Below are positions 1 through 53,306 of a stretch of DNA of 64,000 nt, piece after piece (the first letter of the stretch is position 1; each line of letters begins with the position of its first letter). Under the pieces are notes generated by a model. The model was not told the DNA's origin, searched no databases, and saw only the letters and a list, made by a program, of their open reading frames with translations. The translations under genes were made by a program, and so were the position numbers. Origin of the DNA: Antedon mediterranea (taxonomy: Eukaryota; Animalia; Echinodermata). The stretch lies in contig NC_092678.1 in the NCBI RefSeq assembly GCF_964355755.1, positions 16,225,881-16,289,880 on the forward strand, in the 5' to 3' direction.

Positions 1-2
1 AG

Positions 3-3000
3 ATGAAGTTTCTAATTTGTTTGTTTGTGTGTGTTTCGGTAACCAACGGCGACCTGTATCTGCATAATCCTAGAGGTTCCAACAATCGACTTAATGAGCA
101 GTCAGCCAATAGGAACAATGCAAACAGAATGTTTGACTCGCAGGTTAGTAAGTGGAAGGAAGGTTGGAGGTGGGGGGGGGGGGTTCACAATAGCCATGCG
201 GGGCTAAATAGTGGGGAGGAGGATTGGCACAATGACATGGTGATAAATTGAGATCACGTCCTTGTTTCAGGAGTCTGTTTAAATTGGTTTATTTGAACGG
301 TAAAGTACCAGGGCCAGCATGAGGCAGACGAGGCACTCGTCTGAAATTTTCAATTTTCACCACCCACCCCAATTCCCCAGCACAGATCAACATTTTATAT
401 TAATAATTATATTTAAAGCATCTTTGCCTCATCTGTTTTTAACCTCTAGCTACGACCTTGAGTACCTACAGTATACAATTGAATTACCACAAAATTTCAT
501 AAATGAATGAAAATTATACATTTATTTCTGAAAATACATTGATTGCAATTGTAAAAAATGAATAAATATGATATGATAATATACAGTAGTAGAGTAATTT
601 AATGTATACTGTTTGTTCAGCTGTTTGGAGCTGATGCTTTTATAATAAAATGATAATAATGTATTTATTTAAATCTATACATTGTTATTGTATTGTACAT
701 GTTTTCTTTTACTTATTTCACACACATACTGTAATGTGCATGACTCTATAAAATGACTTTGAAATGTTTTTTTGAAAATCATAATTCTTTATTTATTCGT
801 TTCAATTTCAGTTAACCCAATACCTTGTTAGAAATGTTATTCAAATATATCTACTGTATGCATATACTTTTATACACTAAAGCTCTGTCTACACTATCAA
901 TCTAGTTTGACAAAATAAATGTGATGTGCCCAAATATGGTATTGGTAGACTATATAGTGATATGACATCATCATGATTGTCCATATATGGGCACACATTT
1001 GTTTGTCACATTAAGTTTGATAGTGTAGACAGAGCTTTAGTGTATAAAATTATATGCATATATAAAACCTCTATTTATGGGACACCGGAACAATATGCTG
1101 CAGGTGTCCTCAGAATAAAGGTTTTAAGACTATCTCTCCTAATTCATTGGAAGTGTCCCCTTAATAGATTGTAGCTGGCGTCTCCCGATGGATGGTTTCT
1201 ACTGATTCTACTGAAATTTATTATTTTTTTTTTTTTTAAATGTACAGAATAACAATAGGGGAGGTTACAACTTTGGTGATTCATCAAATAATCCATCTAA
1301 CAACGAAAACCAACAATATAGAATGGTAAGGCTAAATGTTCAATATTAATTTTAAAGCCTGTGTATCAGGGTCACAGGTCATGATGTGAGTGTTTCCTGG
1401 TGAGGGTGAAATGGCAATGCGCGCTGCATGCTATAGGTATATTGTATTAAGCTACTGTAGAGTACCTTTTGCATCAGGGAGTTGCGAAAAAAAAAACATC
1501 TGACCAATTACTCAACTCCCTGATGCAAAAGCTACTCCACAGTAGTTTAATACAATTACAACCCTTTTGGTGCAGTGCCCGCTACTTACTTAGGCTCGAA
1601 TCTAACCACTAGCCATCAGCGCAAGCTCGGTGGTCTAGAGGTATGAACGGCAGGCTAGTGATCTGGGGGTTGTGGGTTCAAGTCCCACCGGAGAATTACT
1701 TGCAAATTTGTTCTTCATACGTCATACTAAGTACATTTGAGGACGAAAAAATTCTCAAGTGTCCTCAAATGTACTTAGTATGAAGTAAAACTTATGTCAG
1801 AGTAGGGCAAAACATCTGACCATTGCTATATGTATTAAGTTTAAATAAAAGAAAGAATATGAGGAAGCACATGTACCTACCTTACTTTGAACGCACTCGG
1901 AATTTCAACCAATTGGCAAATAAATGAATAGGTTTCAGTGGTGTAACGAAGGGGAACCAAACCTTGAAATCCCCAGTGGTCTAATGGTACAGTAGGATGT
2001 CTGCATATTAAACAGAAGATTCTGTGTACAAATCACGGTTGAGGATACTTTTTCTCATTCTCACAGATTTCAACATTCATAAATAATTTTATTTAACCAC
2101 TGAGAGGATAGACATTTCATGCCTGTAAATTATATTTAAGTTTTTTAATTTCAATATCAAGGGTTATTTGGTGTTCTGGAGCAGAAAAAAGGCACTTTGT
2201 TTAGTAATCAATTTGAAGGTTTTTCAAATCAATAATGTTTATTTTCCAAATTCTTAAATGTCAGATATAATCTCAAGCAGATAAAAATAACAGGTTATAT
2301 TTGAAATAATTCGACCTTAACAATTGGCAGAAAAAGGAAAGAAATAATAATACAATTGGTAATCACTTTAAAGGTCATGAATACTTTGTATTTTCTTTTA
2401 ATTGTTTAAGAAAACAATGAAAGTGAACAATTTCTATATTTAGTTACATAGCAGAACTAATTCAATATTTTAAACTGTTGATGAAAACACAGTAGGCCCT
2501 ATTATCAAATATCTTTATATAAATAAGCTCGTTGCAGTCTTTTAGTGTCAATTCAGAAAGCATTTCTGTCATTTTTGTGCAGTCGACCAGGAAATTTGAA
2601 GTTTGCATTGAAAAGAAACACAGTGACTGAACAAAACTTATAGTTACAATACTAGAACTAATTAAATGTGCATTAAACTGTTTGTGAAAACCATGGAGTA
2701 ATCCATGGTAAACACAGTATTATCAAATATCTTTATATAAATAAACTTGTTGCGGTATTTTAGTGTCAAAATAGAAAGCATTTCTGTCATAACCCTTGTG
2801 CAGTTGATCAGAAAATTTTTAAAGTTCGTTCCAAAAGAAACACAGTGATATGGAACAAAACATAGTTACATAGCAGAACTAATTGAATACAATTTGTTGG
2901 TGAAAGCATAGTATTTATCAAAAATCTTAATATAAAAAAAAATTGTTGCAGTTGTACTACCAAATGGTATATATAAATTGTATCAAATTTCTAGTGCATT

Positions 3001-6000
3001 TGATCTAAAGTTTGAAACTTGCAAAACTTGGTTACAATAGCCTACATAAGCCCACTGTAGCAGAAAATAAAATGTAAATGGAGGAATAATCTGCGACTTG
3101 CGCACAGGTGTGGACGACACATACCACAACTTTCTTCTTCCCTAAAAGCCAATTTACACAGACACAGAGCGGTAACGGTAAGCGGCACTTGTAAGCGAAA
3201 AACTACATGACTTTTCCTATTTACACAGCGCGCAGAGTTCGCAAACGGAGTGGTGGAAAGTAGGTGCGTGTAGGCCTAGAGGCTAATGCATGTTACAGTC
3301 ACTGCTGGCCTGGATGTGACTGACGGTTAGTAGGCCTAGCACACACAGTTTTAGAGAGACTAATAACGTACTAAAATGTATATTTTCTTTTCACTATCCT
3401 TATACGAACAATTAGTCACGTCATAGGCGTTTGTATTTCTCAATAAAAAGAAGTTGCAAAACTAGGCTAGGCCTACTACGGCACTCGTATTTATTGTCGT
3501 CTTTGACTCGACGGACGTAAAAAAAGTTATTGATAGATGACGTCATTTCAATCATGGCCAGAATCCATAATTTCTGCGCGGTATTTTCACAAAATAGAAT
3601 CTGTTTCGATCCTGAGCGGATTTCCGCTCAACCGCTCTTCCGCTCCGCGTTCTGTGTAAATGGTCATAAGAAATAACATAGATTATATTTTTGCGTTTTT
3701 CGCTCAACTTTCCCGTTACCGCTCGTCTGTGTAAATTGGCCTTAAGGGTCGACCTTCGTGCCCGTTCGTCTGTCCACAATGACAGAGGCTAAATGGATCA
3801 ATACACCGGGGTAACCCCTACTCTTCCGGATGATGTACTGGGTAACATAATTGAATGCAATAACTGTTGGTGAAAACACAGTTACTTTACCAAATTGAAC
3901 AAAATTGTTGCAGTTGTAATGAATGCCCGATGGTATATATTATATTACATTTCTAGTGCATTTGATCTATAGTATGAAATGAACAAAACTTGCTTACAGT
4001 AGCCTACACACTGTAATAATACAGTAAGTGTATTGTATTGTATTATCAAATATATTTATATTAACAAAACGGTTGATGTAAAAATTAAATGCATGCATAT
4101 TAATTCTGGTGCACTTTATAAGAAAATCTCAAGTTTTGCAGCTCAGAAATACAAAACAAACGTGATATGTACTTCCTGTGCTGACTTAATAACCTTTGAG
4201 GAAATTCCTCTACATGGCCTTGATCTTGTCCATGAATTCAAATTACTAATTCATAATTGCGTGAGATTTATTTATAATTAATAATAATTGGACAAAGATA
4301 CTGTTTTCTACAGTATGGATTTAATAAGAAATAGTTAAATATTTCAGATTGGCCGAGTGGTTGAGACAGGGGTACTGTAAATCATAGCCATAGGTGGGGG
4401 CTAAACAGGCTTTAGCCCCCACCCACCCCCCTAAAATTTAACAGCCATATATTTTTTTACAATAAAATATGACTATTTTTATTTTTCTGCAATCTGACGG
4501 ATCATTTTATCATTTATGAAATAATCTATTCTAATCTATAATAACGCTTGATCTGCCCCTGATATGATAACCCTTTATTGAGTACTAAAACTTGAAGCTA
4601 AATGTATTATATCATAGATATTTATCTTACAAAATGACTCGATTAGAAGAGTATGGTATAAACGGTGTACAGGTATTTGCGAGATAATACAAATCTCGCA
4701 GATGGGTATGTGTACAAATTGTAAGCATCTTTTAGCAAACAAACAAGAAATGAATACAGTTCCTATCATGCGATATGTATTTGCTTTATGATATGGAAAG
4801 TATTTTATATTTTAAGGTCATGTCAACGTCATTACAACGTATTATTGTTTGAAGTCATTGTCGTAAATTTATTTGCTCTCTCTGATATGAAAAGTATTTA
4901 TATTTAGCCCTGATCACACTTAGCATTAACAGCCTAATTACCAAACTTGCATTTCTGTCCAACATAGTGTACCTTATGTGAATATAGTCAACTTTCCAAA
5001 CCCCAAACTCTCCCACAACCAGATTTTTCTTGAAGTCCAAAAGGTCCCAATCATTTTTACCATTAAAAACACATTCTGAATTCCAGACTTTGGAAAACCA
5101 GACTATTTGGCCAGCCCAAAAGTGTATTACCATTGTATATTGATAAGATGTGTATATTATTATGAACAGTTGATCGATTTTCCCAATCAATTGTCCCCCA
5201 TTCAATCCACCATAGTTTGTGAAAGCTCAACCATTAAACAATCCAACCAACCATCAATTTAAACTGTTGTTTGTTGAGGTTCGCTGATACTGATAGTAAA
5301 CATTTTTTCAGAAAGAAATTAGTGAAATTTGACATTTAGCATGAACGTATTAGTTACCTCTAATTTCTAATATCAAATAAGCCTATTAGATACAGTAGGA
5401 GAAAAACAATGGTTTTGCTAAACCTGCAACTTACCTTTAAAAAAGAAAAGCAAATTTAACCCACCATCAAACCAACATAAAAGTTATTAAATCATGTAGG
5501 GTGTTTTCAAGGTTTAACAATTGTTTTTAACCATTATTTTTAACCAAAAATAATGTTTTACCTTGAAAATATGTTGTTAATAACAAAAATGTATACTTTT
5601 TTTAATTGGTTTCACCAAGTAAATTGTACACTTTACATGGTTGAATGTTGGTTCGGTTGAATTTCAATATTTTTTTTTAGGTTTCCAGGGGTTTGCACGG
5701 TTTAGCAATACCATAAGTTATGAAAGGTGTTTGACTTCTCCCAATAGGTGTTCCCTAAGGTTCAACATGTAGACTTTTAACTTTTTGAATTGTGTGCTGT
5801 GAAACAAAAGAAAATCATTGGAAATTACTATCTACTTCCTCATTCTTACATAAACAATAGGAGCCCTGATTCAGCACATTTCACACACAAGGGAAGCTGA
5901 TTTTACAGGTTATTTCCTAGCTGATTTTAAAGCTAAGCTTTATTAGGCTCGTTTGATTTAGCATAGGTGTATACTGAATCGTTGGCGTCAGCTCTGCTAC

Positions 6001-9000
6001 TTAATCCATAGATTAGAATCCGGAGGAAATTATTCCTACTGTTTGATACACTAAGCAGTGTATTAGTGACTTGCTAAAAATAGAACTGTGTAGATTTATT
6101 TTTTGACAGTACTACAGAATAGCTATTGTTTTGTAGAACAAGATAATCTGGGCATTGTTTGAGTGATGGCATTTGACGTTTATTATAATCATCATCATCA
6201 TCAGTTGGCTGTGGAGTAGGCGACTACAAGCTTTCTCCAGCCACAACGGTCCTTGGCTAACTCTGACAGCTTATCAGTTGTAATCATGCCTCCTTCATCC
6301 CCTAAAAGCTGTTGGATGTATCTCAGAAAGTTGGTTCTCTGCCTTTCTCGTTTTCTTAAATTCCCATGTTGAGGAACATACAGAGCGTACTCTTTGCATG
6401 GTTCGTCATCAGGCATTCGAAGCGCGTGGCCCAGGAACTTTAATTGACGGGATCTAATATTTTCCATTAGCGGCCTGGTCTTGGTTAGGTCATAGATAGA
6501 AGCATTTGGCACCCTTATTATAATCACAACTGACATCTTTTACAATTTGTGAAAAAGATTATTTTCATATTTTTCTGAAATAAAATTTAAGGAACCACTT
6601 TCAAAAACTTTGGTTTTGTAAAACACATACCTACCATGATTGCACAGAATTTTTTGTTTGCGACCAGCCCCTGTGAAGAACAACCATGTGTTGATCTGGG
6701 CCTGCCGTGGATAAATTTGAATTGAATTAAAAAAGATCTGAATTTATACTCAATAAAATGTATTTAAAACATGCAGCCCATAGTACTGTAGTTGGTAGTA
6801 CTTAAAGATAAATACACAAAAACCACAGAAAAGTTATACAAATTAAGAATTTTTTTCTTATGATATGTACAATTTTATCTTTGTATGTGAGTTCAAAATT
6901 CTATGAACTTCCAAATATTAATATTGTGGCAGTAGACTAATTTAGCCTAGGTGAGAAAATCTGCAATTGATAGTTCAACAACATTCTCTGTTAAGATGCC
7001 TTTTTTGTTTTTGTTCAGGAGTATTTCATGAGTGGGCCATATATGAAGTATGTTGACGAAGATGGCGTACCTACCGGCGAGGGACAGTCGTTACTAAATA
7101 TTGAATGGACCAATCAGCACGGATGTGGTGGAGATGAGGACAGCGACCCTCACAAGACCAATTGTATGTTGATCATGCAGTACATGTGTCAAGATGATGA
7201 TGCAGCAGGAGGTACGGTAGAGTTCTAATTATTCATGTCAATATTGCTGTACCTTACTCTATTCCAATAAGTACAGTCGTATATTTATTTGTCATTCTAC
7301 CACAAACACTCACATGTTATCCCTATGTAGTCACTACCTATAATAGAGAGGTTTCGCAATCTTACGAATACGATAACGAAAACGGATACGTCACGCACAC
7401 GTATTCGTTTTCGTAAGCCCTAAAAAAAATCTGTTTCGCATGGCAACGAAATATTGAGGCGCGTCCAAAATATGACTGCGGTAAATTTGAGCGAAGCGCA
7501 GGTACGTGTTGCTTGGTGCTTGGCTGCCTAGGCCTAGCGTAACATTAAAGCAAGTGAGGACTTTAAAAACTGCTAATTATCAAAATTGACTTGGCATCTA
7601 TATATATCATATCATATATCATATCATATCATTTATTTCGCCAATATACAGAACAGTACAAAAAAACAATACAAAAGTAAGTCAATGAGGCCGGATAACC
7701 TAAAAGTTACAAATAAAAATAACCGTCGAGAGGCTCTCCACATCGAAATACTTACATAAAATGAATAATACATGGATTCTATTAAAATTTAGATAAAACT
7801 ATAAAATTCAGCAATGTGTTTTTATAAAAAATTGTAAATTTAAAAAGATAGAATTAAGAAAATATCTTTAAAATATACATATGTTCAGATTAAAACAGAT
7901 TGTTAAAAAATTTCTTAAGGCTATCCTTAAAACAGTTTATATTAATTAAATAATATAAATAATAATAATAATATAATATAATATAAATTTACGTAAGGGC
8001 AAAATTCGGTAAATCGCGCGTTATTTCTAGAATGTTTACTCGATGGTATATAAAGTTGGTTCGTACTTTCGGTACTAATTTTAACCACCTGATGTAACCC
8101 TGTTTACTAATTAAATTGAGTTCGATAATTAGTTATTGACGATTAAAACGAATTTAGGTTCAACGATTTGCCCCAAATAGGGGTGTTTTTCGATCGTGGT
8201 ATACACTGTCTAATGGATGTCCGTCTTGAAAAATACCCGCAGACAATAATACGAGGATGCTTCGCGTTTTCCTATCTCCTCCTACGATAATTTTTTTTAA
8301 TGGCTGAAAACCGGTTGAACAGCTCGAGTACAGCATCATAATGTTGAAGACAAGCCGATTTTCTTTAAAAAATACTATTTTGATAGATTTAATATACGTT
8401 TATACAAATGTATTGATTTGCGATGAATGGAACAATCCAATCTCTGTTCCACAAGTGTCTATTCCATCAGGCGTCGTAAAGGCAAGTACTGTATACTCAT
8501 AACAGAAATTCGATCCATTTTTTTCCAACCAACCCAACCATTTCAATCTGTGCTGCAGAGGTTGGATATAAATTTTTTTTAAACGGATAATGAGCTAGCG
8601 TTTTCACTCGCCGTATATTATGTACACATCTTTATTATTGCAGTTAAACCACCAACATCACCACCCTTCCCTCACTGGCATGAGTAGCGTTGTAAAACCA
8701 GTAGAGGATGGGCCTACGGTACATCACATGCCATAAACGCAGAACAACTTTGGTGGGTAGGGTAGGAACCAACTTAAGTATGAATTGGCTCTAAGAAACA
8801 ATTGAAAACCATTAGGCCTACTAATTAGGTTGAGTTAGATAATTTAATATTTATTGAGGATTAAATCGAATTTATGATTTTCCCCGAATAGAGGTGGTTT
8901 TCACAAATTGTTTTATATTATATAAACATATGTAACACGTCGTAGTGATGTATCGTTACATGTACTGTACTATTTCAATCGACTATGACAGTGATAGTTT

Positions 9001-12000
9001 CAACAAAGTATTAAATCGCAATGTTTTACTGTGTGTAGTGGTATATTATTTGTAAAACATGAAAACAATTAATATTTCGTTACTAAATGGATAAAGAATA
9101 TTAAAAATTGTTCCTCTTTGCACCCATCCTCTTCCCCATCCCTCAACCCTAATGTTACATACAAAACACAAATTAAGTTTGTTTAAATTTGACTTAAACA
9201 ATTGGTCTCATTTTGTGACAAGTTTCTCTTTCGGAAGTAATTCCCAGGGTGCTAATTTTAGTTGAGTACATAAATCACAGTGTCTATTTATTCGTTCCTG
9301 TAAACGACATGTATTATTGTCCTGCGGTACGTACATTTGAAATCGCCAGTTTTTTAACGCTGAAATTATTATGTATCCGAGAACCATCTGTGGGCACGAC
9401 CTAGATGGTACGCGAGCGAAGCGAGCGTACCATCTAGTTTTAGTAAATTACTTTCAATAAATCTATAATTATATTTTCATTCCTGATTCAAATGCAAAAT
9501 GTGCAAAATAGATCAAAAACTATACTCGTTTTGTAGTTACGAATATGGCTGGTGATATTCGTCAACACGAATATAATGCTTTACGAATATGAAATGGGGG
9601 TCAGCTCAAAAGTTTCACAAATGTATGACGTATCCGTTTACATTATCGTATTCGTAAGGTTGCGAAACCTTCCTATTGATATAATATTGGATGGCTTTAC
9701 TTTCATGATCATTGATGACATGTTTCCTGTTTCAAAAAGAGTACTTTTTTAAGAAGACCCAACAAGTTGTCCTCTCAATAAGGAATGTCCCCTGAATAGA
9801 GGTATCTAAGAGGATTGTTTCTACTGTATTAAAAATCATCTCTTATTGTGTGACACTTATTCAAGGGACACAACAATTGAATGGACATTTTTCTGTGAAT
9901 GAACACGGAGCAATATATGTTTTTACACTAACACTAATCCCTATTAGGGATTATTACGCTCTTGGAAAAACTAAATGAAAATCTGTCAAAAACCAGATTC
10001 ACTTTTAGTGATATCAAAGGCATTTTTATTAGGTATCTAATCCATATTCATTATTAGGTATCTAATCCATTTGCACAGTGGCTGTGTGTGACAGTGGCTG
10101 TGTTTGTGTGGACTAGTACACCGGGGTAACCCCCTACTCGTCTCGAAAGATGTTCTAGGTTCTTTAAAGTGCACACAAGCTAGATGGGTACACTGGACCT
10201 ACGATTTATAGTCCTTTTCCGAGAAGACTCGTTCTATCACCTACCATGGAGCGAGTTAGCCTCGAACCCTTGCCGATGTTATGGCTACGTAATTACGGTT
10301 ACGTAATTACGGTTCCACTGTCTTAATCGCTCGGCCACTCACTCGCTTTAACTGCTCGGCCACTCACTTGCTTTAACTGCTCGGCCACTCACTCGCTTTA
10401 TTATTAGGTATCTAATCCATATTAATTATTAGGTATCTAATGCATATTCATTTAGGTATCTAATGCATATTCATTTAGGTATCTAATGCATATTCATTTA
10501 GGTATCTTATGCATTATTCATTTTATTAATTCATCAGTATTTGATTACAATTGGGATTCCACTTATAAAATAAGATTTCTCATAATCATACTAGAAAATG
10601 TTGAAATCCGTAATGGTCAGAACACAAATACGCAGCAACACACTCGAATACAAAACTTGAATGAAAATCAAAACCAGGCCAATAATCGTAGGAACAACGA
10701 TGTACAAGCAAATCGTGGTTTACAGGAGCCTTGGGAATGGTACGATAAATGTTACAACAGAGAAAGAAATATGGGTAAGTGACATACTTTATTTCAACTT
10801 GTAGATTATCTTTGTTGTAAGTAAGTATTTGAATAAGTGATCAAATTGAATGAACATAGCTGTCTAATAATGATGTTGTTGATTGAAAATTTTACCTGAA
10901 AATGGAGAAGATAAAATAAGCACAATTGAATAATTTAACAGTCAAATTGAATGAGTAAAGAAGTTGAAAAGGGGATCCAATTAAATAAGCAATCTGATTG
11001 AATAAGGAAACTACGATTGAAAGATTGCAGAAGTTGAATAAGAACAGCATTTGAAAAAGAATAATTTTGTTATTAGAAAATTGTACCTGAAAATGGATAA
11101 GATAAAATAATCACTACAACTGAATAATTTAACAGTTAAATAAGTGCTCAAATTAAATGAGTAAAGCAGTTGAATAAGCAATCTGATTGAATAAGGGCAG
11201 AAGTTGAATATTAATAACGTCGTTGAATAATTGAATAATAATTAAACAGTCAAATAAGTGCTCAATTAAATGAGTAAAATAGTTAAATAGGGATCCAATT
11301 GAATAAAGCACTCCAATTGAATAAGTCACATCACCACACAATTTAAGTATATGATACAATTCTCTTCTTAAAAGGTCTATTTACGGCCGATCAGAACCTA
11401 AGAACTGATAACGGCAATGGATATAGTTCTGCAATTTACACACGACAGAATCCTCAAGGAACCCAGAGGGGGTATGAGTGCCCGGAAGAGCGTGACTATT
11501 ATCCCTATTGGCATCCCACCCCATGGAGAGATGTTGCAGTTCTTGTACAGAATGTATCTGAATGCAGGTTAGTGGATTTAGTTTCCTTCTGTTATTTTCT
11601 TTTGTTTTTCATGTTTTATTTATTGACCTTTGCATTCTAAACACTAAAGCATGTAATCACTAAATTGTGTAGTACCTCTTGTACATTGTGTAGAAACCTT
11701 TGACCATATGTACAAATAATTCAAATAAATCAAAAAGTCTTGAAGTTTTAAGCTTTTTCTACACCATCAAACTTTATGTGACAAAACAAATGTGATGTGC
11801 CCATAATATGGACATGTCAAACTAGATTGAATGATAGTGTAGTAGACAAAACTTTATAAATTGAGAAGCCCTCCATGTGCTAAAAATATCAGGAGGCATA
11901 CTGTAGTTTGGTCCTCTATTGGCTGGACACCCTGGAGGCATTATTTTTTTCCTATCCAATTAAGCCAGAAATCATGAATAATTATAAATAATTGCAGGAT

Positions 12001-20483: not shown

Positions 20484-21559
20484 GGGTGTCACGAAACCTA
20501 AGACCACGAAAGCTAAGACCCCCAAAGACCTAAGATCACGAAAGCTAAGACCCAAGACCTAAGATTACAAATATTTATCTTTCGCACCTGCCTTGTATTT
20601 TAACTCCAAACATTTATTCTGAATACCACACCTTAGAATTGGCACTTTCATGAAAAAGAATCACATAAAAAGTAACAAATACATTTTTAAATTGATGATT
20701 TTACAGACGTTTTTCTCGCACACAAAATGACTAGCCTACAGTACAGTAGGCCTACCCCATGTTCAATGTTTTTGTTTCTATGGAACGTCAAAAGAGCAAA
20801 CATTATATAGAGGGCTGAAAACTCTGTGGAGTCCATCTACAGTGTGGATGGAACAATGTAAAATTAAAATTGTAATGATAATAGTATAATCATGCAAGTA
20901 CGAAGAAATAAATACTGGCAAATAAATTTTAATTTAAAAATCATGATAAGTTTTTTTGTTTCGTTTTCTTTCTGTTTTTATACTTGTACTATTATTGTTG
21001 CTCTTTTGGCGCTCTATAGAAACAAAAACATTGAGCATGGGGAGCTCGAGAAGTTAACATTACAGTATACAAAGAAACACATCTGTAAAATCATCAATTT
21101 AAAGGATTTATTTATTTGTTATTATGTGTTTCTCCTTCTGAAAGTACAATTATAAGTCCTAATTTTAAAGTGTGGTGTTCAGGATAAAGTTAGTCAACAA
21201 ATTTGGAGTCAAAATACAAGAAAGGCAGGTGCGTAAGAAAAACATCCTCTGAACCAACACAATGGAGTAAATATATACCAACAAACAACCCGTCAAGTTT
21301 GTTTGTTGTAAAGAAAAAATATACATTTACTCAACGGGCGAAAATAATGTGAGTTTATCTATGTTTTGCGGTAGTATTAAATTATATTTATGGTAATAAA
21401 TTAAACCTACTGTGTTTAAAATTATGTATGTATAAACAAGTATTGTTTTTAAGCTGTAGTATATCTTAGTATTTGTAATCTTAGGTGTTGGGTCTTAGCT
21501 TTCGTGATCTTAGGTCTTAGGGGGTCTTAGCTTTCGTGGTCTTAGGTTTCGTGACACCC
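20484..21559. mobile_element. Mutator-like TIR element with long, internally repetitive TIRs
   Basis: TIR GGGTGTCACGAAACCTAAGACC... about 90 bp. TACTTAGCTT is duplicated at 20474-20483 and 21560-21569. Confidence 0.8.
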
Positions 21560-21885
21560 TACTTAGCTTGGTGGTAATAATAATGGTCATGGTCTACTAA
21601 GTCTGGTGGTGATACTAATAATCATAGGCCTACTTAGTTTGGTGGTAATAATAATTATCATGGCCTACTTAGCTTGGTGGTAATAATAATGATCAAAGAC
21701 CTACTTAGTTTGGTGGTAATAATAATGATTATGGCCTACTTAGTTTGCTGGCAATCATGTCCTACTTTAGTTTGGTGGTAATAACGATCATAGGCCTACT
21801 TAGTTTGGTAGTAATAATAATGATGAGCATGGCCTACTTATGTTGGTGGTAATAATAATGATCATGGCCTACTTAGTTTGTTGCA
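21560..21885. repeat. ~35-38 bp minisatellite GGCCTACTTAGTTTGGTGGTAATAATAATGATCAT (begins ~20420, split by the TIR element)
   Basis: About 9 tandem units visible. Confidence 0.8.
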
Positions 21886-24096
21886 ATATGTGCCTGTCCA
21901 TTTGATTTCGCCCCGTGCGTTTGGTGTGCATTCACACGCGTATTCTGTTTCTCCACTTTCAGTCTCTACTGATACACAATCTCCGTTGATGCAACCACCG
22001 CACTGATCTGTACCATAATAAAAACAAAATTAGAAATAGATAATTTAACATCGCCAGATATGTAGGCCGAAATTGCTAATCCTATTTTGGATTGAAATTG
22101 TATTTCGAAAAAGATGGGATGAAGGTTGATCAACATCAAACGTCCAACGTCACCATCAATCCTTCTCTCTGATGAACTAAATAATATTACTAAAACAATA
22201 ATATAGAGCAAGAGTCTGTCCCGATCATAGAACCATGGGCTTAATGTAGGCCTATTTCGTCTTGACATTTCTAAATTACCCTACTCTGATTGTTTACTTT
22301 TTTTTTAAATTAAAATCTTCAATTTTTGGATTGTTATGTAAAAAGGAGAGAATGTATAAAACGTGTAAACAAAATGTATAAGAAAATACCTCATTTTTAG
22401 AAAACAGTTTAATACTAACTCGGTAGAAAAATAGTTGGCTATTTACCTGAATTCCTGCTTGATTTAATCACGTAACTATAAGAAATCGTCACAAGAACCA
22501 AAACCAAACACAGCGTGATTTTCATTTTTGCTTTTTGCTACAAGAAAATGAAGTTATTATTAAAACTCTCGAAATTAGAATTTCTGTTTTTTTAAAGACA
22601 GAACTAGCTGGTCTACAAATCACGTCAATTGGAATCTGTTTTTAAAAGACAGAATTTGGTCTACACATCGTGGGAAACAAAATTAATTGATTCAATTAAT
22701 ATAAAAAAAAAAGTAAGACTAAATTACTAACTTCACCTGAACAACTAATCCTCAAATTGTTATGAACGCTATATATTGCTTCCACAGGACCAACTAACTG
22801 TTCTGTCTACTTCTTCACCGATATTTAACTTTGATGAACCAACAGACATCTCATATCTATTTACAGAACCTCTAAGTTGTTGCTGCAGTTTGTTCCCATA
22901 TAAAAAATAATTCAATTATGTAAATGTTGAACACTAGTTCGGTAAACATACAGTCGCCTATGTGCAAACCAGAAAATCAAACATACAATAGCCTCCTATT
23001 CTGTCTATTCTTCTCCTACCATTTTACACTTAAAACTTGATCAACAGTGGTGGGCCAATATGAGTGGTATGAGTGCATTTTAGTGTTTTCTGATCAAATA
23101 ACGCCCACTGTATGTTGACCCAGTAATCATAATGGATTTATTTTTGTCTGACTTTTCATAATATTGGAATCAACAGGTTTTGTTTGTACCCATAGAAGTA
23201 TTAAAGAAGAGAGTCAACTACTGTACAACATAAAAATCACATGTCAGGTAGAAAGCCATCATGGAAAAGTTCCTTGGTCATGAATAAAAACAAATTTCGG
23301 CATAAAATGCACAATCTGACTGCATTTTCCTATTTTCTGTATTCGTTGTCTGAATTTTGGTTTTGCTCAAAGGTACCTGATTCTTCGGCTGTCGTTAGAT
23401 AGATCATAACTGACTATTGAAAGTCAACTAATTACAAATTAGGAGAAATTACATTTCAACAACCAAAACATAGAGTTCATTAGGGGGGATTATGTTCGAC
23501 ATTTGACCAATTGACCTTAAAAATAGTGTCCCTGCTTTGCCCCCCATGATTTCGATTTAGCCTTCTTATCTCTGGTTTATACGGGCAGTATAATGGTACC
23601 GGTAACTTAAGATGTTATCTCAACAAGGCCTTCAAAATGGTTGCAGACAAAAGCATTTAATAATATTATATTCAAATCAAAAGACAATGAATCGTCAATT
23701 AAATGTTGAGATTGAAGCTATTTAAGAGCATTCATAATAATAGTGTAAAGGTCCTTTGGGGAAAGGATATTACCTCAGCTAGGCCTACATAAGTAATACA
23801 ATTGAGACCAATTTGTTCCTTGTTTAACTTAACTTCAGTCAAGAGAAGATATTTGATTGGTTGATAATTTATATAAATTCCCAATATTCACTCCTTAAAT
23901 AGCGCCACGTTAATCAGTGTACCGTGAACATATACGGATTTTAATACCATAAACAATGCGATTTAGTTTCAAATTATTGCGATGACACTCGACATGTTAA
24001 GTGTTTTTCTTCGTGGGATATTGCAGAAATTTTATTGTACAAAGACATAATTTTAAGTTATTGTTTATTCAAACTCGAACACGGCGAGCTAACATC

Positions 24097-27000
24097 ATGC
24101 TTCCAAAAGGCAAATTGCCTAAAAGGGGTAAGTTATGTATCATTGTGAAAAAATTATCTCTTTCTATTCTAAGTATTTATTCATTTCTATGTTATTGGCA
24201 CAAAGTTTTAAACTATATACATTTTATAAACATATTTGACATTGTCGTTTGCGACAAACATCTGTCATACTATATTTGTACATTACCCTTTTATATCCTA
24301 CGATTGGGTGAAGTTACAAGGTTAGGTTTAGACAACAGAAGATTGACAAATAGCAAGAATGTTGTTAACGTCAGGGAGAAACATGTAACAAGATTTTGTC
24401 GTTTACATAGGCCTACTATTTTAAGTCTTGATAACCATTAGGGCTACTGTACTGCTGTTTATTATTATTAATACATTGTACATATTAAATTAAATCCTCT
24501 ACACATTTCATGAACTAATGAAAGCCAACGTTATAGTGCACAATAACTAAATGATTCAATACGCAATGACTGTATTTAACAGAACACTATACAAACCACA
24601 TGACTCTGTACACTTTACTATAATAATTCGTACGGAATATTTTTGGCCAATAAGAACTTTCATGATAGGATTTGAAAACAAAAACATGTGTTACCAGATA
24701 TAAAGCGTGGTTCCCACTAGCGACGCAACGCAAGGACGTAATGCAATGCAAGTGAATTGACCAATCACAAGCGATGGCTTACTCGCTTGTGATTGCTAAC
24801 TGTCTATAACTTCGCTTGTCATTGGTTAAAACGCTTGCGTTGCGTTTACGTCCTTGCGTTACGTTCTAGTGGGCACCAAGCTTAAAGTCTGAGGTACGGC
24901 GGTCACATAGCCAACATGTAGTTACGTAAAGCGTGGTTCCCACTAGCGACGCAACGCAAGGACGTAACGCAACGCAAGTGAATTGACCAATCACAAGCGA
25001 TGGCTTATTCGCTTGTGATTGCTATCTGTCTATAACTTCGCTTGTCATTGGTTAAAACGCTTGCGTTGCGTTTACGTCCTTGCGTTACGTTCTAGTGGGA
25101 ACCAAGCTTTAATGATTGTTTAGCTTAATCGAAACGTCGGGAGCTAGCAGCTTACCCCAGTTGTTTTCAAAAGTAGGCCTACATACGTGGTATTTTGCGC
25201 GATAAGATATCATTATATTGGATATCAGGGCGTAAATCCACTGTGGAGATTTAGAGGGTTCATGCCAAGGATTGCGTCTTTCTTTATTTGTTCTTCAGTG
25301 TCTGTTTTCTATTTGTATGATATTGAAATAAATCATATTAAATGTTCGTCATGAAAACAACTTTCATCGCGGTAAACACTCCTTGACAATTAAACTACCT
25401 GTCAGTATGTGTTTTATTATATTATCAAGATATTCCGTAAATAAGTGAAAATTCAATTATCATTCCAAAACCAAACATTAAATATAAACATTGCATATGT
25501 TTTAATAGTTTCGTTTTTAAAATAAAATTATTTTAAAAATGTAGTTTTCAACTATGCAAACAATAGGCCTATTATTATTATTAAATTATATACTTGCCCC
25601 ATAGACTGCAACTAATACAGTATTTGTACTGTATTTGTAATTTGTTATTCAATTATTTAATATTGATATACAATTAAATTGCATTTAAATATTTTCTAAA
25701 CGCCATTACTCTTTGTTTAGGAGATATTAATCCAGGATTTCACAAACCACACATTACACACATCGCATTGTTATAGAAATACCTAATAAGCCGTTGATAT
25801 GGTTATTTAGCGTAGCTTCAAGTATGCGCTGAGACGACCGTTACTAATAATATTTTAAGGCTTATATGTAGTCAATAGAAATCTTAAAGAACAGTGCGGC
25901 TACTAATCGCCGATTGTACAATTGATATACACAAAGTTGTGCAAACCATATTTTAGGGCCTAACAGATATCCTATATGTCTTCACTTTATTGGCATTAAT
26001 CAATGTTGAAGTTTGAATGGCGCGGAGTGGAACAGAATGAAATTATACCTTAAAAACTCGAAAAAAAAGTCCAAGGTTTTATGGTATAACATGAGCAAAA
26101 AGTTACGTTAATATACTAAATAATTGGAAATAATATAAATGTATTATTTATTAATTGAAAGATTGGAAATTTCAATTTCGTACTTAAAAAGTGTTATCAT
26201 ATAGGCCTACTACTCATTTTCCCATCCATCAACCGGTCGTTAAAATGGAACGTGCCTAAAAAACATTTTTTTTTCGCAAAATGAACATAATATTTTTGAA
26301 AAGATAATACAAGTGTACCGCATCGGTTGAGTGATTTAGGATTTAGTAAACGACACTGAGTTTTTATAGAGTGATATTATTACTGATTATCTAAATACTA
26401 TCCTCATTATAAATAATGTTTTATTTAGTACATATTCAAAGCAGTCGTATTGTTCTCCAAATCTATTAATGATTTAATTGTTGAAAGGGTATCTGAACAC
26501 AAATACCTAGGAACTATAGTTATGATAAACTTAAATAGAACGCTAATTCAAAATACTTGCTGGCAAAAAGCTTAGAATAATCTTCATGTCGAACTCCAAA
26601 CGAGATCTTTAAACAAAATAGGCCACGTTATTAGATCTTGCTTAGATCTACAGACCATCAGCTGTTTTACTTCATTTATTTTTAAATATTTTTAAATATT
26701 TAAAATATCAAATTTAAAAACAATATTTGATATTTTAATATTGTGAATTGAATTTGATTGATAATATGTAAATGCACTTTTATTTATAACGAATCAAGTA
26801 AAATATGATAAAACAGAAATTAATTATTTTATTATAACTGTACTTTTTTTTAGATAAAGGACATGACAATATTGTACCCGAGTATAGATGTTTAAAGGTT
26901 CCAGTTTCAATTGATCATACGGTGAACACATCCATTCTTGTAGTAAGAGACTTTTGAAATATATATTTATACTGGGCAACCTCTTCAGTCAAAGACTGGT

Positions 27001-28747
27001 CTCCCAGAGTGCCAAGTTATGATCACTGGCTGTGATGTACTAATAAACCGGGGTAACCCCTACTCGGGCCCCTACTCATCTCGAAAGATGTACTAGGTTC
27101 TTTAAAGTGCACACGAGCTAGATGTGTACACTGGACCTACGGTTTATAGTCCCTATCCAAGAAGACTCGTTCTACCACCAGAACCCCTGCCGATGTTATG
27201 GTTACGTAATTACGGTTCCACTGTCTAAACCGCTCGGCCACTCACTCACGACGTTATTATCCAAGATCAAACGGTTGCCTTAAAGATGTATTGTTCCCTG
27301 AAAAAATTGATTGTTGTTGAATAAGCCATTTTAATGTCACATAGGCCTAATAGTTATTCACTTTGACCGAAAATTCGGCCCCAAAAAAAAATGTATTTAC
27401 CTGAAAAAACTGTAATTTAAAGCAAAAAATAATCAAATTGGCTGCCAGTCATTTTTTTTTCATTTTATAAGTGAAAACATTATTTTTCGGGGTTTTTTTT
27501 CTATGGAAGTGATTAACTTTGTTAAAACTACAAAATGACCTATTTAAAGTCAGATTTTATCTTAATTTTTTATGTTTTTAGGGGACAATACATCTTTAAT
27601 CGATCCTGTCATTAATAACCCCAAACATACAGATAGCATGCATGCAGTTACCATATAACTGAAATATACCACAATTCGAATCCTTACTACTGTATGAAAT
27701 AGACGAGTTGTTTGGAGACAGATTATTCTCCGACTCTGTGTGCGTCGAGTTATTGCTTCCCACAAACAGTCTTATTTATTTTGTATCTTTTTGAGACCGG
27801 AATTGTTCAAGAGATGAGGTGTATATTGCTAGGCCTAGTTCTTTTCTAACTGGCTATTCCAGAGTGTCTCTTTTACACCAGAGAGATAAAATAATTTATA
27901 TAAGCTATATTTTCCTCCTTTGATCTCATCAAATAAAAGTAGAAAAATCGTTTGAGTTTGAGAGAAAAATTTGATTCAGTTGATTTTTATCCCATTTTAG
28001 ACTAACGGCCTTTTCCAGATCACGCTATCTATCTACCTCTTTTTCATAACAACCTGTACTGTATAATAATTAATTTTCTAAGGCAATTAATAATTGATGT
28101 CAAGTTATGTGTTTACGTTTTCATCATCAGGTCACAAATAGTTCTATTCCGTCTGTCAGCGACCACACAAAGATGAAAGAAATGCCAAGACAGCATTTTG
28201 CTTGGGCCTTGGCGAGTCTATTCTGTTTTCTACCATTCGGAGTAGCCGCCGTTATTAACTCAAGAAAGGTAACGTATTAGAGAATCATAACATTCCAAAC
28301 ATACATAAAAACGCTAGCTATATTATTGATTCATATCATTAACTACTAGTTTGTTTTCATCAAAGTATGACTTGTTTTGTTTTAAATTATGGAAGTCTAA
28401 ACAACTAGTTATAGGCCTATGCAAAGTTGCACCAGCGAGTATACTGCGCGTGGATTTGCTCGAATCCCTCACTCTCTAGTTGATGGAATCAGGGAAGAGT
28501 TAAATTACATGATGGAATCTGTTTTTTGTCTCAACTGTGTCACTTCTTTTCCTTCACATAGGTTCGTCCATTATTCCAGGAAGGCAAGTACCAGCTGTCG
28601 TCTGCTGCATCTCGTAGAGCCAAGGTGTACTCTGTGTTGTCGACTGTCATCGGTCTGTTAGTCGCAACAATCATCGCTAGTTTACTCTTAATAGATTGCC
28701 GTTTTTATGAAGACAACACCACCATTGTTGAACTTCACAATACCTAA
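24097..28747 (+). CDS. CD225/dispanin (PRRT/IFITM-like) membrane protein, 4 exons, ~132 aa
   Basis: Exons 24097-24127, 26854-26897, 28131-28268, 28562-28747, phase-consistent. MPRQHFAWALASLFCFLPFGVAAVINSRK/VRPLFQEGKYQLSSAASRRAKVYSVLSTVIGLLVATII fits the CD225 domain. The first two small exons are less certain. Confidence 0.78.
24703..24883. mobile_element. MITE, AAGC(G/T)TGGTTCCCACTAG family
   Basis: Near-identical to 18507-18685. Confidence 0.8.
24929..25109. mobile_element. MITE, AAGC(G/T)TGGTTCCCACTAG family
   Basis: Second copy 45 bp downstream; TA on both flanks. Confidence 0.8.
26955..27249 (-). mobile_element. tRNA-derived SINE (Deu/Nin-domain-like)
   Basis: Minus-strand head GTGAGTGAGTGGCCGAGCGG and core ..GGACTATAAACCGTAGGTCC...GCACTTTAAAGAACC...GAGTAGGGGTTACCCCGG. 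Confidence 0.78.
27284..27595. mobile_element. Kolobok-like MITE
   Basis: TTAA on both sides; TIR AGATGTATTGT.CCC. Confidence 0.72.
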
Positions 28748-29711: not shown

Positions 29712-29739
29712 GTTTTTTTACGATCGCCGAGTACACATC

Positions 29740-32700
29740 ATGTCATCAAGAGAAGGTAAAACACACATAAATTAGTGTTAGTTGTTATTAAATTCTCTTT
29801 ATTATGAAAATTAATGTAATGAATTCAAGTGTACGGTTTATTTATTATCGACTAGACCTAGCCTATAGGCCTAGCTAGGCATATTTACTAGTAACTAGGC
29901 TAGGCTAGTAGTACTCTATACATGCAGTAGAGGCATCGGCCCCCGCGAACCTGTGGCGAATCCGGCCATGTAGGATAGGCTAGGCCTAGCCTAGTAGATT
30001 ACAGTAGTAATAGAGAAGTCTTGGTCGACTACATTAGTATTATTCAGTTTAGTCTAAGTAACTAAACTTAATTATAGAATATTAAAAATTGTGATCCGAT
30101 AATTGTTCCAATATATTACTCAATCATTTTATTTTTTATTAGGCCTAGCCTAGGCCTTATTTATAGGGTGTCAGATGAAATCGGTCGCGATAAAATCAAC
30201 TTCCGGTATTTTGTATGGCGCGCCGCTAGAGCTATACTTTTGATTATATCGGTCGCGTTTGAAATCGGTCGCGCTATTTTGTATGGATCGGGCTGGATGC
30301 GATGCATTTTTCGTTTATATAGATTTAATTGATATTTTTTAGGAACTAGATTATTTATGTGGATATTTTTTACTTGGTTAATAAATATTTATTATCAATC
30401 ATTAGGCCTAAATTAATTTTTTTTTTTTGTATTTCACAGGTCTCGGAGAAGGACTTTCTTTTCAAAATGGCCATTTCTAAACACGTTTAAATATTATATT
30501 AGGCATATAATAATTTACCTCTATTTATATGTACTGTAATTAATATATTATATAGAGAATATACGTCTGTCGTGTCTTTTATTATGCAAACAATTAGGCC
30601 TACGTATGGTTTTAGGATATTAATGAAATACAGTATATAGATAATAGGCCTACCGTATATTTCGGTGTATAAGTCGCACTTTTGACACGCAAATTTGACC
30701 TCTAAATTAAGGGTGCGTCTTATACACCGAACATAAATGCCTCACCACACAGATTGTACATATTGGCCTATCGTCACCTCGTTTGCTAGGCCTGAGTAGG
30801 CTAGGCCTAGCTACAGTATACTAACGTAACGGCAACCTGCTTCTGCCTAGTTTTCAAGGCATTTTAGCATGATGTTAATATTATACTAAATATGATGAAA
30901 AGATTTGTTCATTATGGAGCGGTTTTAGGCACTCCGATAAATTTCATTTGTAAACGTTTACGTACGATCGATTGGAATAGTATTTATTTATAGTTATACG
31001 CACGATCGCCGACCGCCGTACCCCTAGCGCAAGCCCTTCTTGTGGGCGGCCACATGGTGAACAGTATTCGACTAGTATATTCTCCAGGTGATTATAGGAT
31101 GGACCTAGCGTACACACTTCTCGGATACATAGAATACGATTGTCCGTGAAAACGTGCGCCCTCTCGAAATGATCGAGCGAGGCTAGCCTACACACGTACA
31201 TCGTGTTACACACACGGTCATGCACTCGATGTTGTTGCAGGTGCAAACTAATGAACAACAAGTTAGAAAGAACTTGTTGAGGCTGGGCACGGCCGAGCCT
31301 AGCTAGGTAAGAAAAAACCTATTTAAAGGACGCCATTGTAGATATAACAAAATATATTATTACAATAATATTGATTACAATTTAAAAAAAACATTGTTTT
31401 GATGAAATATAAGGTGCGTCTTATACATCGACGATATAAAAAATACCGATATTTTACTCTCAGTTAGGGGTGCGTCTTATACACAGGTGCGACTTATACA
31501 CCGAAATATACGGTATGCCGTTATAAATCAATCTACCGGCCTACAGAGGACTATAATGTACAATGATAGATGTGCGAATAATTGATTGATTGAAATTTAT
31601 ATTTATACTGGGTAACCTCTTCAGTCAAAAACTGGTCTCCCAGAAGGCCCAGTTGGTGATCAGTGGCTGTGATGTAGGCCTACTAATACACCGGGGTAAC
31701 CCCCTACTCGTCTCGAAAGATGTACTAGGTTCTTTAAAGTGCACACGAGCTAGATGTGTACACTGGACCTACGGTTTATAGTCCTTATCCGAGAAGACTC
31801 GTTCTACCACCAGCAGAACCATGGAGTGAGTGAGCCTCGAACCCCTGCCGATATTATGGCTACGTAATTACGGTTCCACTGTCTTCTTAACCGCTCGGCC
31901 ACTCACTCACATAATAATGTATGGATATTATGTGGACACGATTCTCAATTGAGAATCGTGTCCACATTATCCATACATTATTATGTGAGTGAGTGGCCGC
32001 AAAGAGGTAATCTGCACTCATATTTAACATTTAGATTTACGAACGACGTATGAATGCGAGACACTGAGTTGCACTTACTTAATTATTTACATTAAATGAT
32101 TATTATAAATGAAGAAATAAAAGATATTCAAATTAAAATCTATAGTATCGCCGACGATATATACGTAAATTCGTATTTTTCATACTGTCAAATTATAGAA
32201 AAAGTGCTTTATTCGGAATTATTATGGATAAGCAAGCCTGTGAGCTACAGCGATTTAATTGCTTTTGTTTTCCTTGCCTCCTTATATTTCCACGTGTCTT
32301 GATTTGGTTACCTATGTTTTAAATGTATTTCGATTTTAAAGGCTAAATACAGAATGAATGAATGAACATGATCTCATAATCGCGTCGAGCATCTATAGCT
32401 CATTGGATCGTTTCACAAAAACACGTGCAGGAGGCCTATAGACGTTTCAAACATGGTTATTAGTAATAGACGTCATCTTTACTTCGCCATGGACAACGAT
32501 CGTACGTGTTTTGTCCATGATTTGACACACTAAACAAGTGCGTGTTTTTTAAAAAGGGGAAATCCCGTCAGCAAAATAACGTATTGTTAGAGGAAACAGC
32601 TGCACGATCATAGAAGGCGCATCTCCAATATGGCTTATTCGGGGGTTTATTTCAGTAACTCGTCTTTTAACCATCCGCATATAATGATCATTTTACTAAA

Positions 32701-35700
32701 AACTATTTTAAACATTAGAGATAAAAGTATACACGTGATTTGCCTCAACAATAATCATTATACACTTAATATTATCCAACATAACGGATAGAAATAAAAT
32801 AGAAATAAAAATAAGGTGATCGAATTGTATGTTGTTAACGACATGGATATGATATAATCTGCCACAGTATGCATAAGTAAAATGGATACGCTGGCCTTAT
32901 GGGCTATATTGTAAAAATTATTGTTTTTAAATAAATTGTTCTCTTACGTAATTGTTTGCATAATAAAAGACACGACAGACGTATATTCTCTACATAATAT
33001 ATTAATTACAGTACATATAAATAGAGGTAAATTATGATATCTAATATAACATTATGCCTAATATAATATTTAAACGTGTTTAGAAATGGCCATTTTGAAA
33101 AGACACAGTCCTTCTCCGAGACCTGTGAAATACAAAAAAAAATAAATTAATTTAATGATTGATAATAAATATTTATTAACCAAGTAAAAAATATCCACAT
33201 AAATAATCTAGTTACTACAAAATATCAATTAAATCTACATAAACGAAAAATGTATATCCCGCTCTAGCATGCATCCCGCTCGATCCATACAAAATAGCGC
33301 GACCGATTTCAAACGCGACCGATTTCAAACGTGACCGATATAATCAAAAGTATAGCTCTAGCGGCGCGCCATACCAAATACCGGAAGTTGATTTTATCGC
33401 GACCGATTTCAAACGCGACCGATTTCAGACGCGACCGATTTCATCGTAAACCATTTATAGTAGCCTATTATAGGCCTAGTCCTTTTCTATGCCTAATTTA
33501 AACAATTTTTTTGTGCATAAATCATCAACAACCCATTATTATTCTTCTTTCTATCCATAATTTGTGATCATTTTTCCACTAAATAAATATATTCATCAAT
33601 TTGTCAACCACAGTTTATAGTTAAGTGATGCAATAAATAAAGGGGGCTTTGTAACTACAGTACTCTCTCTAGTCACTAGTGGAATAGTCTCCTGTCTGAT
33701 GTGGTTAATTGAAACATTCCATGGAAATTTATTATTTTGTTCTTTCTCCAACAATAACTTTTTCCAACAATCACTTTTTCCAACAATCACTTTCTCCAAC
33801 AATCACTTTCTCCAACAATCACTTTCTACAACAATCACTTTCTCCAACAATCACTTTCTCCAACAATCACTTTCTCCAACAATCACTTTCTCCAACAATC
33901 ACTTTTCCCAACAATCACTTTTCCCAACAATCACTTTTTCCAACAATCACTTTCTCCAACAATCACTTTCTCCAACAATCACTTTCTCCAACAATCACTT
34001 TCTCCAACAATCATTTTCTCCAACAATCATTTTCTCCAACAATCACTTTTCCCAACAATCACTTTTTCCAATATGCCTGTCTTTATACATTATTAATCAT
34101 GTGAAAAGAATACACGATATTTTTAATATCCTTTCTTCCACCTTTTGCATCATGTTTTAGTATTTACCGTGGATATGACATGATTAAATACACAAATACT
34201 AATTACTAAAGAAATTAAGCTCCAAAAAGTTTAGATTTTTACAATTTCATATGTTTAGTTCCATGATTTTAGTAAAATGATTGTTATGTTAGATATACTT
34301 CACTTGAAATTTTGGACCTGACAGTAAACACCACTGATTGTTAAAATGAGCACAATATAATCATGTGAAGAGAATACACGATATTTTTAACGTCCTTCCA
34401 CTCCACCTTTTGCATTATGTTGAAAAAACGACAGGAACAACGATCTTCTTTACTATCTAATCTTACTTATTGAGTTTCTGCGGTGCTGACATCACGACGG
34501 TAGGTGGTGCTGCGTGGTTGCTAGCCAATCAAAAAATGCGTTCAATCTGCCTGAATGACTCATCAGGTCACCAATGGTTTGGAATAGGCTTATGGAAGTA
34601 GTCATTTTAAAACGTAATAATTTTTAATAAAAACAAACTAAATTTTCAAAAGATTACTAAATACAGTATTTTTTTAATGATCTATTTATTCTTCAACTAC
34701 AGTTTAAGTTTAAAAAAATCAAGCTAAGATACATAATTTGATAGAAATACAGATCTATACAGTTTATCAACATAGTAGCGTTGAATGCATGTTTTGGTTG
34801 GCTAGCAACCATGCAGCGCCACCTACCATCGTGACGTCAGTAGTCAACATTTCAACTGTCCTAAAACAAACTGTAGAAATGTTCTTTTTAAATTGTAAAT
34901 ATATTTGTTATTTGTTTTACAGGAGGCAAGAAAAAGCCATTAAAGGCACCAAAAAAACAGCAACTGCAATTAGATGACGTATGTAACAATTTTATTCACT
35001 AAATCACACTGAAAGGAGATTTTAAAGAATATATGTATTGTCCCCCTGAAAAATAATTTTTCAAATTTTGTTTGTTGAATATGCCATTTTAATGTTACAT
35101 AATAGTTATCCAATTTGACCAAAAATTGTACGTAAACAACATTTATTTACCTGAAAAAACTGTAATTTAAAGCAAAAAATGGTCAATTGACTGCCAGCCA
35201 ATGAATTTTTGGTCGAATTTAACTATTTATTATGTTATTTTATAAGTGTTTTGGGGTTTTTTTTCTATGGAAGTGATTAACCTTATTAAAACTAGAAAAT
35301 AACCTAATCAAAGTGTGATTTAATTACTGTAATCTTAATTTTTCATGTTTTTGGGGGACAATACATCTTTAACTACTAATTATTTCACTTAATTCAATCA
35401 TACCTCTCAACTCTCCTGATAATGACGAGAGTCTCCCGATATTTCCAGTCATCTTCTAGTCTCCTGATAAAAATGCAATTTCTCCCCCAATATTTTGGAT
35501 AAACCAAAAAGTTTCCCAATATGTAAATTTATAATTTCTACTAATCTAGATATTGATAAGAGAATAAAAACATACTAATTAGTCCGTAAGATGTTTATAT
35601 TCATGTGTTATAACTCAGTGATATGAGTTGGCACTCCTGACATACATACCCATGTTTACAATTATAGATGCCAATATCTTTTAGGGTTTCATATGGTTTG

Positions 35701-53267: not shown

Positions 53268-53306
<39 letters not shown>

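Follow-up and report, generated by a model that had tools for sequence, protein, structure and literature searches.

Excision scars are familiar from experiments on single transposable elements. According to the available portion of 10.1101/659086, the chemistry of Tc1/mariner elements involves staggered cuts, after which two or three terminal bases remain on either flank as 3' overhangs, and Sleeping Beauty leaves the canonical scars TACAGTA and TACTGTA, besides the minor forms TACATA, TACGTA, and TATGTA as well as TACTA, TAGTA, and TATA. The accessible text of PMC13148408 describes the excision scar of Tc1 in C. elegans as typically +4 bases. The pogo-type element Passer inserts at AAGTACTT, favours 5' gene ends and active promoters, and leaves footprints of 0-4 bases (PMC9976928, in the part available). 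ISL2EU and other PHIS elements, known from animals only, have GG ends and a two-base duplication (available parts of PMC4482050 and PMC4122938). Here, a stretch of 64,000 bases of the echinoderm Antedon mediterranea (NC_092678.1, positions 16,225,881 to 16,289,880; the window) was analysed for the unit TA-GGCC-TA (TAGGCCTA). This pattern is a real and strong mutational signature, and its sites are six-base gains at TA.

The window (34% G+C) contained 59 copies of TAGGCCTA, against 1.15 expected under an order-2 Markov model, and 100 dinucleotide shuffles of the window gave a mean of 0.62 copies with a maximum of 3. Masking of clusters and tandem arrays (3,137 bases) took out 20 of the 59 copies and left 39, against 0.76 expected. 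At about 50 times the Markov expectation, the 8-mer count does not reduce to such a background. Merging copies borne by one repeat or one tandem unit lowered the number from 59 to 56. Indeed, some copies were multiplied through tandem duplication (20436, 21625, and 21791), and one site is common to two copies of an element (7529 and 51338), indicating passive spread. The TA..TA context holds 59 of the 174 GGCC sites of the window. The three-base forms TAGGCTA and TAGCCTA occurred 15 and 19 times, respectively, in the unmasked window (4.1 expected for each), TAGGCCCTA three times, and TAGGGCCTA once. The original prediction, made from the letters of the window alone, that TAGGCCTA and its variants appear dozens of times agrees with these counts; among the variants that it named as common, TAGGCTA and TAGCCTA stood and TAGGGCCTA did not. 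The roughly delimited exons (~4,172 bases) held no motif, against 2.7 expected, which is not a significant depletion.

Five pairs of paralogous sequences that had been reported to differ by the unit were all recovered in place. In each of them, the empty copy reads one TA and the filled copy reads TA, inner bases, and a second TA, with five inner bases in one pair. The repeat labels used below, namely SINE (short interspersed nuclear element), Kolobok, and foldback, are those of the original prediction, and the present checks covered the repeats and their ends. With the help of third copies, three of the five pairs could be polarised as gains, one was ambiguous, and one was unpolarised. The dispersed repeat copy (SINE) carries TA-GGCC-TA at 31675..31682, and three other copies (27038, ~10110, and ~3795) lack the six bases. 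Similarly, a gain was found at 30595..30602 in the left arm of a large inverted-repeat element (foldback), which forms an inverted pair with the right arm at 32949; at the counterpart sites, the right arm and a related element near 48543 both read TTACGTA. This pair sits at the alignment edge, with only ~5 matching bases 3' of the site, because the arms diverge there. The third gain is that of TA-GGCCC-TA (TAGGCCCTA) at 2493..2501 in a local repeat unit, compared with 2718; it occurs in one of four units, those at 2641, 2863, and 3848 being without it. The site at 30403..30410 in the left arm is not found in the right arm (33153, inverted), and TAGGCCTA also occurs at the equivalent position of a related element (48326..48333), so that its polarity is ambiguous, as had been cautioned. 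For the site at 27342..27349 in a TTAA-flanked miniature inverted-repeat transposable element (MITE; Kolobok), the sole other copy in the window (35100) has a bare TA.

The unit also stood out among small indels. Self-alignment of the window, with 72 repeat pairs kept (9,900 columns) and satellites left out, gave 14 distinct indels of 5-7 bases with good flanks, four of which were the unit placed after TA (2495, 27344, 30403, and 31677). At the motif density of the window, the chance that a deletion of this size placed at random takes out such a unit is 0.0018, which for 4/14 corresponds to p ~1e-8. The enrichment of GGCCTA-type units among 5-7-base indels that had been foreseen was thus found. 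The site at 30595 is a fifth unit indel, counted outside the 4/14 owing to its position in the alignment, and possible extra pairs at 8813, 34662, 35325, and 33007 were aligned too poorly to count.

The same pattern was met in metagenome contigs that look eukaryotic (retroelement-like frames and MITEs). Scanning these contigs for three close motif copies yielded at least 120 loci, of which 64 (265,030 bases) were used, all longer than 1 kb and with 33-50% G+C, after ten satellite-rich loci had been dropped and matched clusters masked. Written as TA + G-run + C-run + TA (observed/expected), the spectrum of the masked window comprised GGCC 39/0.8, GCC 9/3.0, GGC 4/3.0, GGCCC 3/0.1, and GGGCC 1/0.1, and that of the 64 loci GGCC 148/2.8, GCC 58/12.7, GGC 53/12.7, GGGCC 11/0.6, and GGCCC 6/0.6. 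No excess was found for GG (13/18), CC (16/18), and GC (11/12) in the masked window, nor a clear one in the loci (43/43, 38/43, and 66/58, respectively), and GGGCCC was absent outside the clusters of the window. The mirror forms GGC and GCC were similar in number (15/19 in the window, 53/58 in the loci, and 7/7 and 3/3 in two stacks of units described below). Their excess of 7 in the window and ~86 in the loci equals or exceeds that of all twelve inner single-substitution neighbours together (7 and 58), making later decay by loss of one base an unlikely origin of the three-base forms. Point-mutated neighbours numbered 17 in the window, against 9.6 expected, beside 39 intact sites, which suggests that many scars are young relative to substitution. 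When the 120 loci were aligned with one another, clean cases were few: the unit filter retained 2 of 63 indels of 4-8 bases, and one or two more could be picked out by eye. Two related stretches (L016:1988-2282 and L120:63-356) each contain a GGCCTA that is missing from the other, apparently the same process in another organism. In the pooled loci L001-L120, TACATGTA (34 versus 7.5) and TACCGGTA (14 versus 3.1) were raised as well, suggesting other palindromic scar types.

The sites are not placed at random among the TAs. At 37 isolated sites of the window, the base adjoining TA was C 2.1-fold and A 0.46-fold as often as at all TAs (p 1.3e-5). In the loci, the corresponding figures at 180 sites were 1.8-fold and 0.55-fold, and the GGC/GCC sites there had the same C/A flank bias. 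The preference around TA is symmetric (G-TA-C type), and a palindromic site bias is what, by analogy, a transposase dimer would give.

Taken together, the scars are probably fixed remnants of an excised TA-duplicating cut-and-paste transposon with GGC or GG ends, the flanks of which were end-joined by the host with some of the terminal bases retained. The large predominance of GGCC over equally frequent GGC and GCC, the lack of a GG or CC excess, and the symmetric G-TA-C bias would fit the repair of two 3' overhangs. The confidence placed in this reading is divided between two variants. The major share goes to GGC ends with three-base overhangs, for which the chances are about even; one or more GG- or GGG-ended elements with two-base overhangs are the lesser, tentative possibility. 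In the former case, excision would involve staggered cuts, and each flank would end in a TA-GGC 3' overhang. If the two terminal bases then pair (GC with GC) and one base is filled in at either side, TA-GGCC-TA would result, whereas pairing of all three bases with a central G:G mismatch would give TA-GGC-TA or TA-GCC-TA in equal numbers, and slipping of the fill would give the rare five-base forms GGGCC and GGCCC. The main variant route would start from a GG overhang of two bases, made by a GG- or GGG-ended element. The original prediction had proposed GG..CC ends, and the spectrum favours GGC ends over these. Consistent with such pairing, no palindromic CAG product was found in the window (TACAGCTGTA, 0 copies), as CAG tips cannot self-pair. 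A hairpin route, in which CC-ended elements would produce GG tails, was dropped on the reasoning that it would shorten the strand needed for integration.

Each scar would leave two TAs in place of one, and at the starts of germline-active genes, where chromatin is accessible, repeated hits may build up stacks. Two such stacks, which the original prediction did not mention, lie at gene starts. A large stack of TA-delimited units at 46860..47470 (GGCC 13, GGC 7, GCC 7, GC 10, C 11, and G 5) occupies intron 1 of a short-chain dehydrogenase gene, 100-700 bases inside the gene; identical neighbours make up only 3 of its 17 adjacent G/C units, which argues against plain slippage. The second (GGCC 3, GGC 3, and GCC 3) is found at 29845..30160 in intron 1 of TMA7, 100-420 bases past the start codon. 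Both stacks are strand-mixed with respect to GGC and GCC, and the 5' ends of these two genes hold 40 of the 97 motifs within 2.4 kb. In the inverted-repeat element of TMA7 intron 1, two sites lie in the arm on the side of the start codon, and the far arm is free of them. The first coding exon of TMA7 (translation; plus strand) is located at 29740..29755; the later exons, one at 34923-34979 and one starting at 36592, match Pfam TMA7 (E 3.3e-05 and 1.6e-07). That of the short-chain dehydrogenase gene (minus strand) is located at 47565..47607, with the next exon from ~46184; exon 1 (MKMRSFSGKAALI) joins GASSGIG in frame (Pfam adh_short, E 2.7e-07). Elsewhere, a stack with shared TAs at 20732..20754, reading TA-GCC-TA-CAG-TA-CAG-TA-GGCC-TA, lies in a high-copy repeat, other copies of which read differently there. 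In addition, a TA-flanked MITE with CCGTA ends (30653..31513), which we take to resemble Passer/Tc2 ends, has as its left TA the second TA of the TAGGCCTA at 30645. This stack and this MITE indicate that TAs once hit get hit again.

The interpretation as excision footprints, as originally put forward, is sustained in part: the gains at TA, the spectrum, and the site bias speak for it, and none of the three checks aimed at refuting it did so within the limits of the window; the part concerning a TA-flanked GG(C)-ended source element found no counterpart. Inverted-repeat scans at TA and clustering of 2,050 TAGG starts were used for the source hunts. Elements with terminal inverted repeats starting GG(C/G), which the original prediction expected beside TA, did not appear as a GGC-ended family in 370,824 bases, and the inverted-repeat element at 7346..9673, with ends G[GA][GA]AGGTTTCGCAA and a second right end at 51666, is a weak candidate source only. 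It is the only inverted-repeat element found in these bases with similarity ending at TA and then GG or GA. An AT duplication of the ISL2EU kind is an equally good reading of it, and scars of the form GGG/CCC show no increase. Matches starting with TAGG lay within other repeats, were satellites, or belonged to an element that has a duplication of 8 bases, and no GGC-ended family was among them. Several points weigh against the transposon reading. No TA-flanked GGC-ended element was found in the above-mentioned bases from 95 sources (26 repetitive or high-GC loci being left out); the TA-flanked elements begin, among the matches listed, with CAC, CAG, CCG, CGA, or AAG. Neither a filled/empty pair with the element in place nor a transposase was found, the latter in the 10 reading frames scanned by profile (part of all frames, further ones being read by eye). 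GG ends go with AT duplications in ISL2EU (PMC4482050, available part), and Sailor ends are GT or CC (PMC8533490). The left arm shares the motif at 30403 with a relative more distant from it than the right arm, and the right arm lacks it, a distribution that needs a loss or a second hit. Taken by itself, the masked window shows a modest GGC/GCC excess (GGC p 0.35, GCC p 0.004), and the GGC/GCC sites of the window (10 sites) show no detectable flank bias. The loci were chosen for holding three motifs and hence are not a random sample. In the interval between -200 and +1000 around the start codons of the four genes in which these were located, 42 of the 97 motifs were counted (28, 12, 2, and 0), in a test that was devised after the clusters had been seen and that covers four genes only, two of which (DD3-3 and arylsulfatase) hold 0 and 2 motifs. 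Finally, TACAGTA was not seen as an insertion in any clean pair among the 72 repeat-pair alignments.

The search for insertion polymorphism between haplotypes, which had also been proposed, drew on sequencing runs, the four that contain most of the stretch belonging to one sample; three of these four, and one run with a small share, were aligned to 16900-26600. Contigs with at least two letter differences from the window covered 8 of the 17 TAGGCCTA sites in that interval (17737, 17831, 22247, 23780, 24408, 25174, 25564, and 26202) and showed no six-base gap, which is weak evidence and gives no dating, as variants are lost in contigs and high-copy repeats obscured 45 indel rows. The runs X1-X3, with small shares of the stretch, added nothing usable.

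An alternative without any GG-ended element is that ordinary TA-flanked elements (CAG, CCG, and CAC ends) made the breaks and that a host repair polymerase added G to both 3' ends ahead of joining, in which case the host itself would have produced GG+CC. Terminal transferase prefers G, and every enriched form fits a G-run followed by a C-run. Such tailing would account for the failure to find a GGC-ended element, and the G-TA-C bias resembles the Passer target, two CCGTA-ended MITEs being present in the window. However, untemplated tails should vary in length, and outside the clusters there is no excess of GC (11/11.6), GG, CC, or GGGCCC (0). As it does not account for the sharp, 50-fold peak at exactly GGCC either, host G-tailing is considered unlikely. 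Still less probable is that transposons are not involved and that selection keeps or multiplies the motif as a transcription factor site close to start sites, the clusters arising through slippage. Human ZFX binds AGGCCTAG ~240 bases from start sites (accessible part of PMC5848610), and both the concentration of 40/97 motifs at two gene starts and the copies spread by tandem duplication at 20436, 21625, and 21791 could be read in this way. The likeness to ZFX-family binding is one of sequence and position only. Selection would not explain the gains of whole units at a bare TA inside repeats without a nearby template, the preference of dispersed sites for C rather than G after TA, or the strand-mixed stacks, in which only 3/17 adjacent units repeat. 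Nevertheless, selection on a ZFX-like site could act after insertion.

Two further explanations are both very improbable. If the motif were ancestral in the repeats and the differences were deletions between two TAs, the microhomology of the TAs would make loss plausible; the 30403/48326 case and the 27342 site without a third copy would agree with this. Within the window, this counter-case, already raised in the original prediction as a consensus containing the unit, runs against the other copies without the unit in three of the five pairs, the 30403 pair being ambiguous and the 27342 pair unpolarised, and deletions give no account of the 50-fold excess. The motif might also be what a collapse between the termini of hAT, Harbinger, or ISL2EU elements (TAGG, GGCC, or AGG ends) left behind. 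In L018 there is an element that combines TAGGG ends with an 8-base duplication, an AGGCC-ended one with TAA flanks lies at 3140-3748, and ISL2EU ends are GG with an AT duplication (PMC4482050, in the portion available). Yet 8-base direct repeats, as with hAT, flank 0/59 sites, the TWA duplication of PIF/Harbinger elements is not seen (TAAGGCCTAA 0, TTAGGCCTTA 0), the ATAGGCCTAT context of an AT duplication occurs at 2/59 sites, and the indels comprise 6-7 bases and lie at TA, as opposed to 7-16 bases at TWA, AT, or 8-mers. The remnant explanation is excluded by flank structure and largely refuted by the empty sites in the five pairs.

Other repeats and genes of the window were noted. A very high-copy MITE is present at 18505-18687, 24701-25111, and 38920-39133, with a contig depth thousands of times that of single-copy sequence; three of its four copies read TA-AAGC...GCTT-TA, so that its duplication may be TA rather than TWA. 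At 44859-44866, GTCTA follows a TA as an addition in one unit of a 20-base satellite; the resulting TA-GTC-TA, which may be a third scar type, is not enriched window-wide. Two long inverted-repeat elements (20484-21559 and 30167-33450) both start with GGGTGTCA; the former has a 9-10-base target duplication and is presumably Mutator-like. The element at 47772-49810 bears 16-base subterminal arrays as well as an 8-base duplication (CTTGTAAC), and a relative of the 30167 element is nested in it. At 57183-59885, a Penelope-like reverse transcriptase, with a weak GIY-YIG match after it, is interrupted by an inverted-repeat element, and a broken long terminal repeat retroelement remnant (reverse transcriptase/RNase H) lies at 39900-40975. 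The genes comprise a DD3-3-like gene with many exons (1-16220), the last exon of which is 87% identical to a protein of the feather star Anneissia japonica (other matches <=62%), which makes a crinoid host likely, a small CD225 (dispanin) family gene (28130-28700), and an arylsulfatase gene on the minus strand (52640-56161), the last exon of which recurs with 90% identity at 63497-63975.

With about one dispersed scar per 1.6 kb in the window, scars seem to be an important origin of fixed small insertions, and one that can be counted. If so, scar words would record past jumps of elements with few copies left, map germline accessibility, and reshape promoter-adjacent sequence. The spectrum predicts both the ends (TA-GGC) and the target (R-TA-Y, mostly G-TA-C) of the source, which makes the latter searchable. 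A wider claim, namely that a TA-cutting system not described before (a GGC-ended transposon or a G-tailing host polymerase) acts as a site-directed mutator in several animal lineages, with hundreds of thousands of TAGGCCTA per genome stacked downstream of germline-active gene starts, is doubtful; if true, stacked TAGGCCTA words could supply ready-made AGGCCTAG-type binding sites. Literature searches, which did not cover subscription journals and Repbase reports, found no paper on genome-scale TAGGCCTA scars among the entries listed, and the available parts of PMC4700943 and PMC10045372 contain nothing on the motif.

Compared with the systems described above, the context that a scar of ISL2EU or other PHIS elements would have occurs at 2/59 sites; the duplication of these elements, as far as described in the portions available, is AT in AATT and not TA. 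The scars resemble Passer, according to its accessible description, in a TA target within a G-TA-C palindrome and in a bias to 5' gene ends. In contrast, the products of the CCGTA-ended MITEs of the window would be CCG/CGG/CCGG, which are barely raised (TACCGGTA 2 versus 0.4). As with Tc1, a small insertion would stay at the TA target after excision, but +6 dominates here and the +4 forms TAGGTA/TACCTA show no excess, on the partial account of Tc1 available. A parallel excess of the Sleeping Beauty type, likewise passed over in the original prediction, was found for TACAGTA (29) and TACTGTA (27), against 7.1 each (56 versus 14, four-fold); these are spread more evenly than the GGCC forms and stack with them on shared TAs. 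Judged by the available portion of 10.1101/659086, the scars share with Sleeping Beauty the structure of TA, terminal bases, and TA, the two mirror three-base forms, and shorter forms of the same kind, which occur here in stacks (GC, G, C, GG, and CC). In G/C letters, the stack units correspond to the series CAG, CTG, CG, C, G, CA, and TG of Sleeping Beauty. The scars here depart from Sleeping Beauty in having G/C letters, in a palindrome of four bases as the main form, and in being fixed at ~0.6 per kb.

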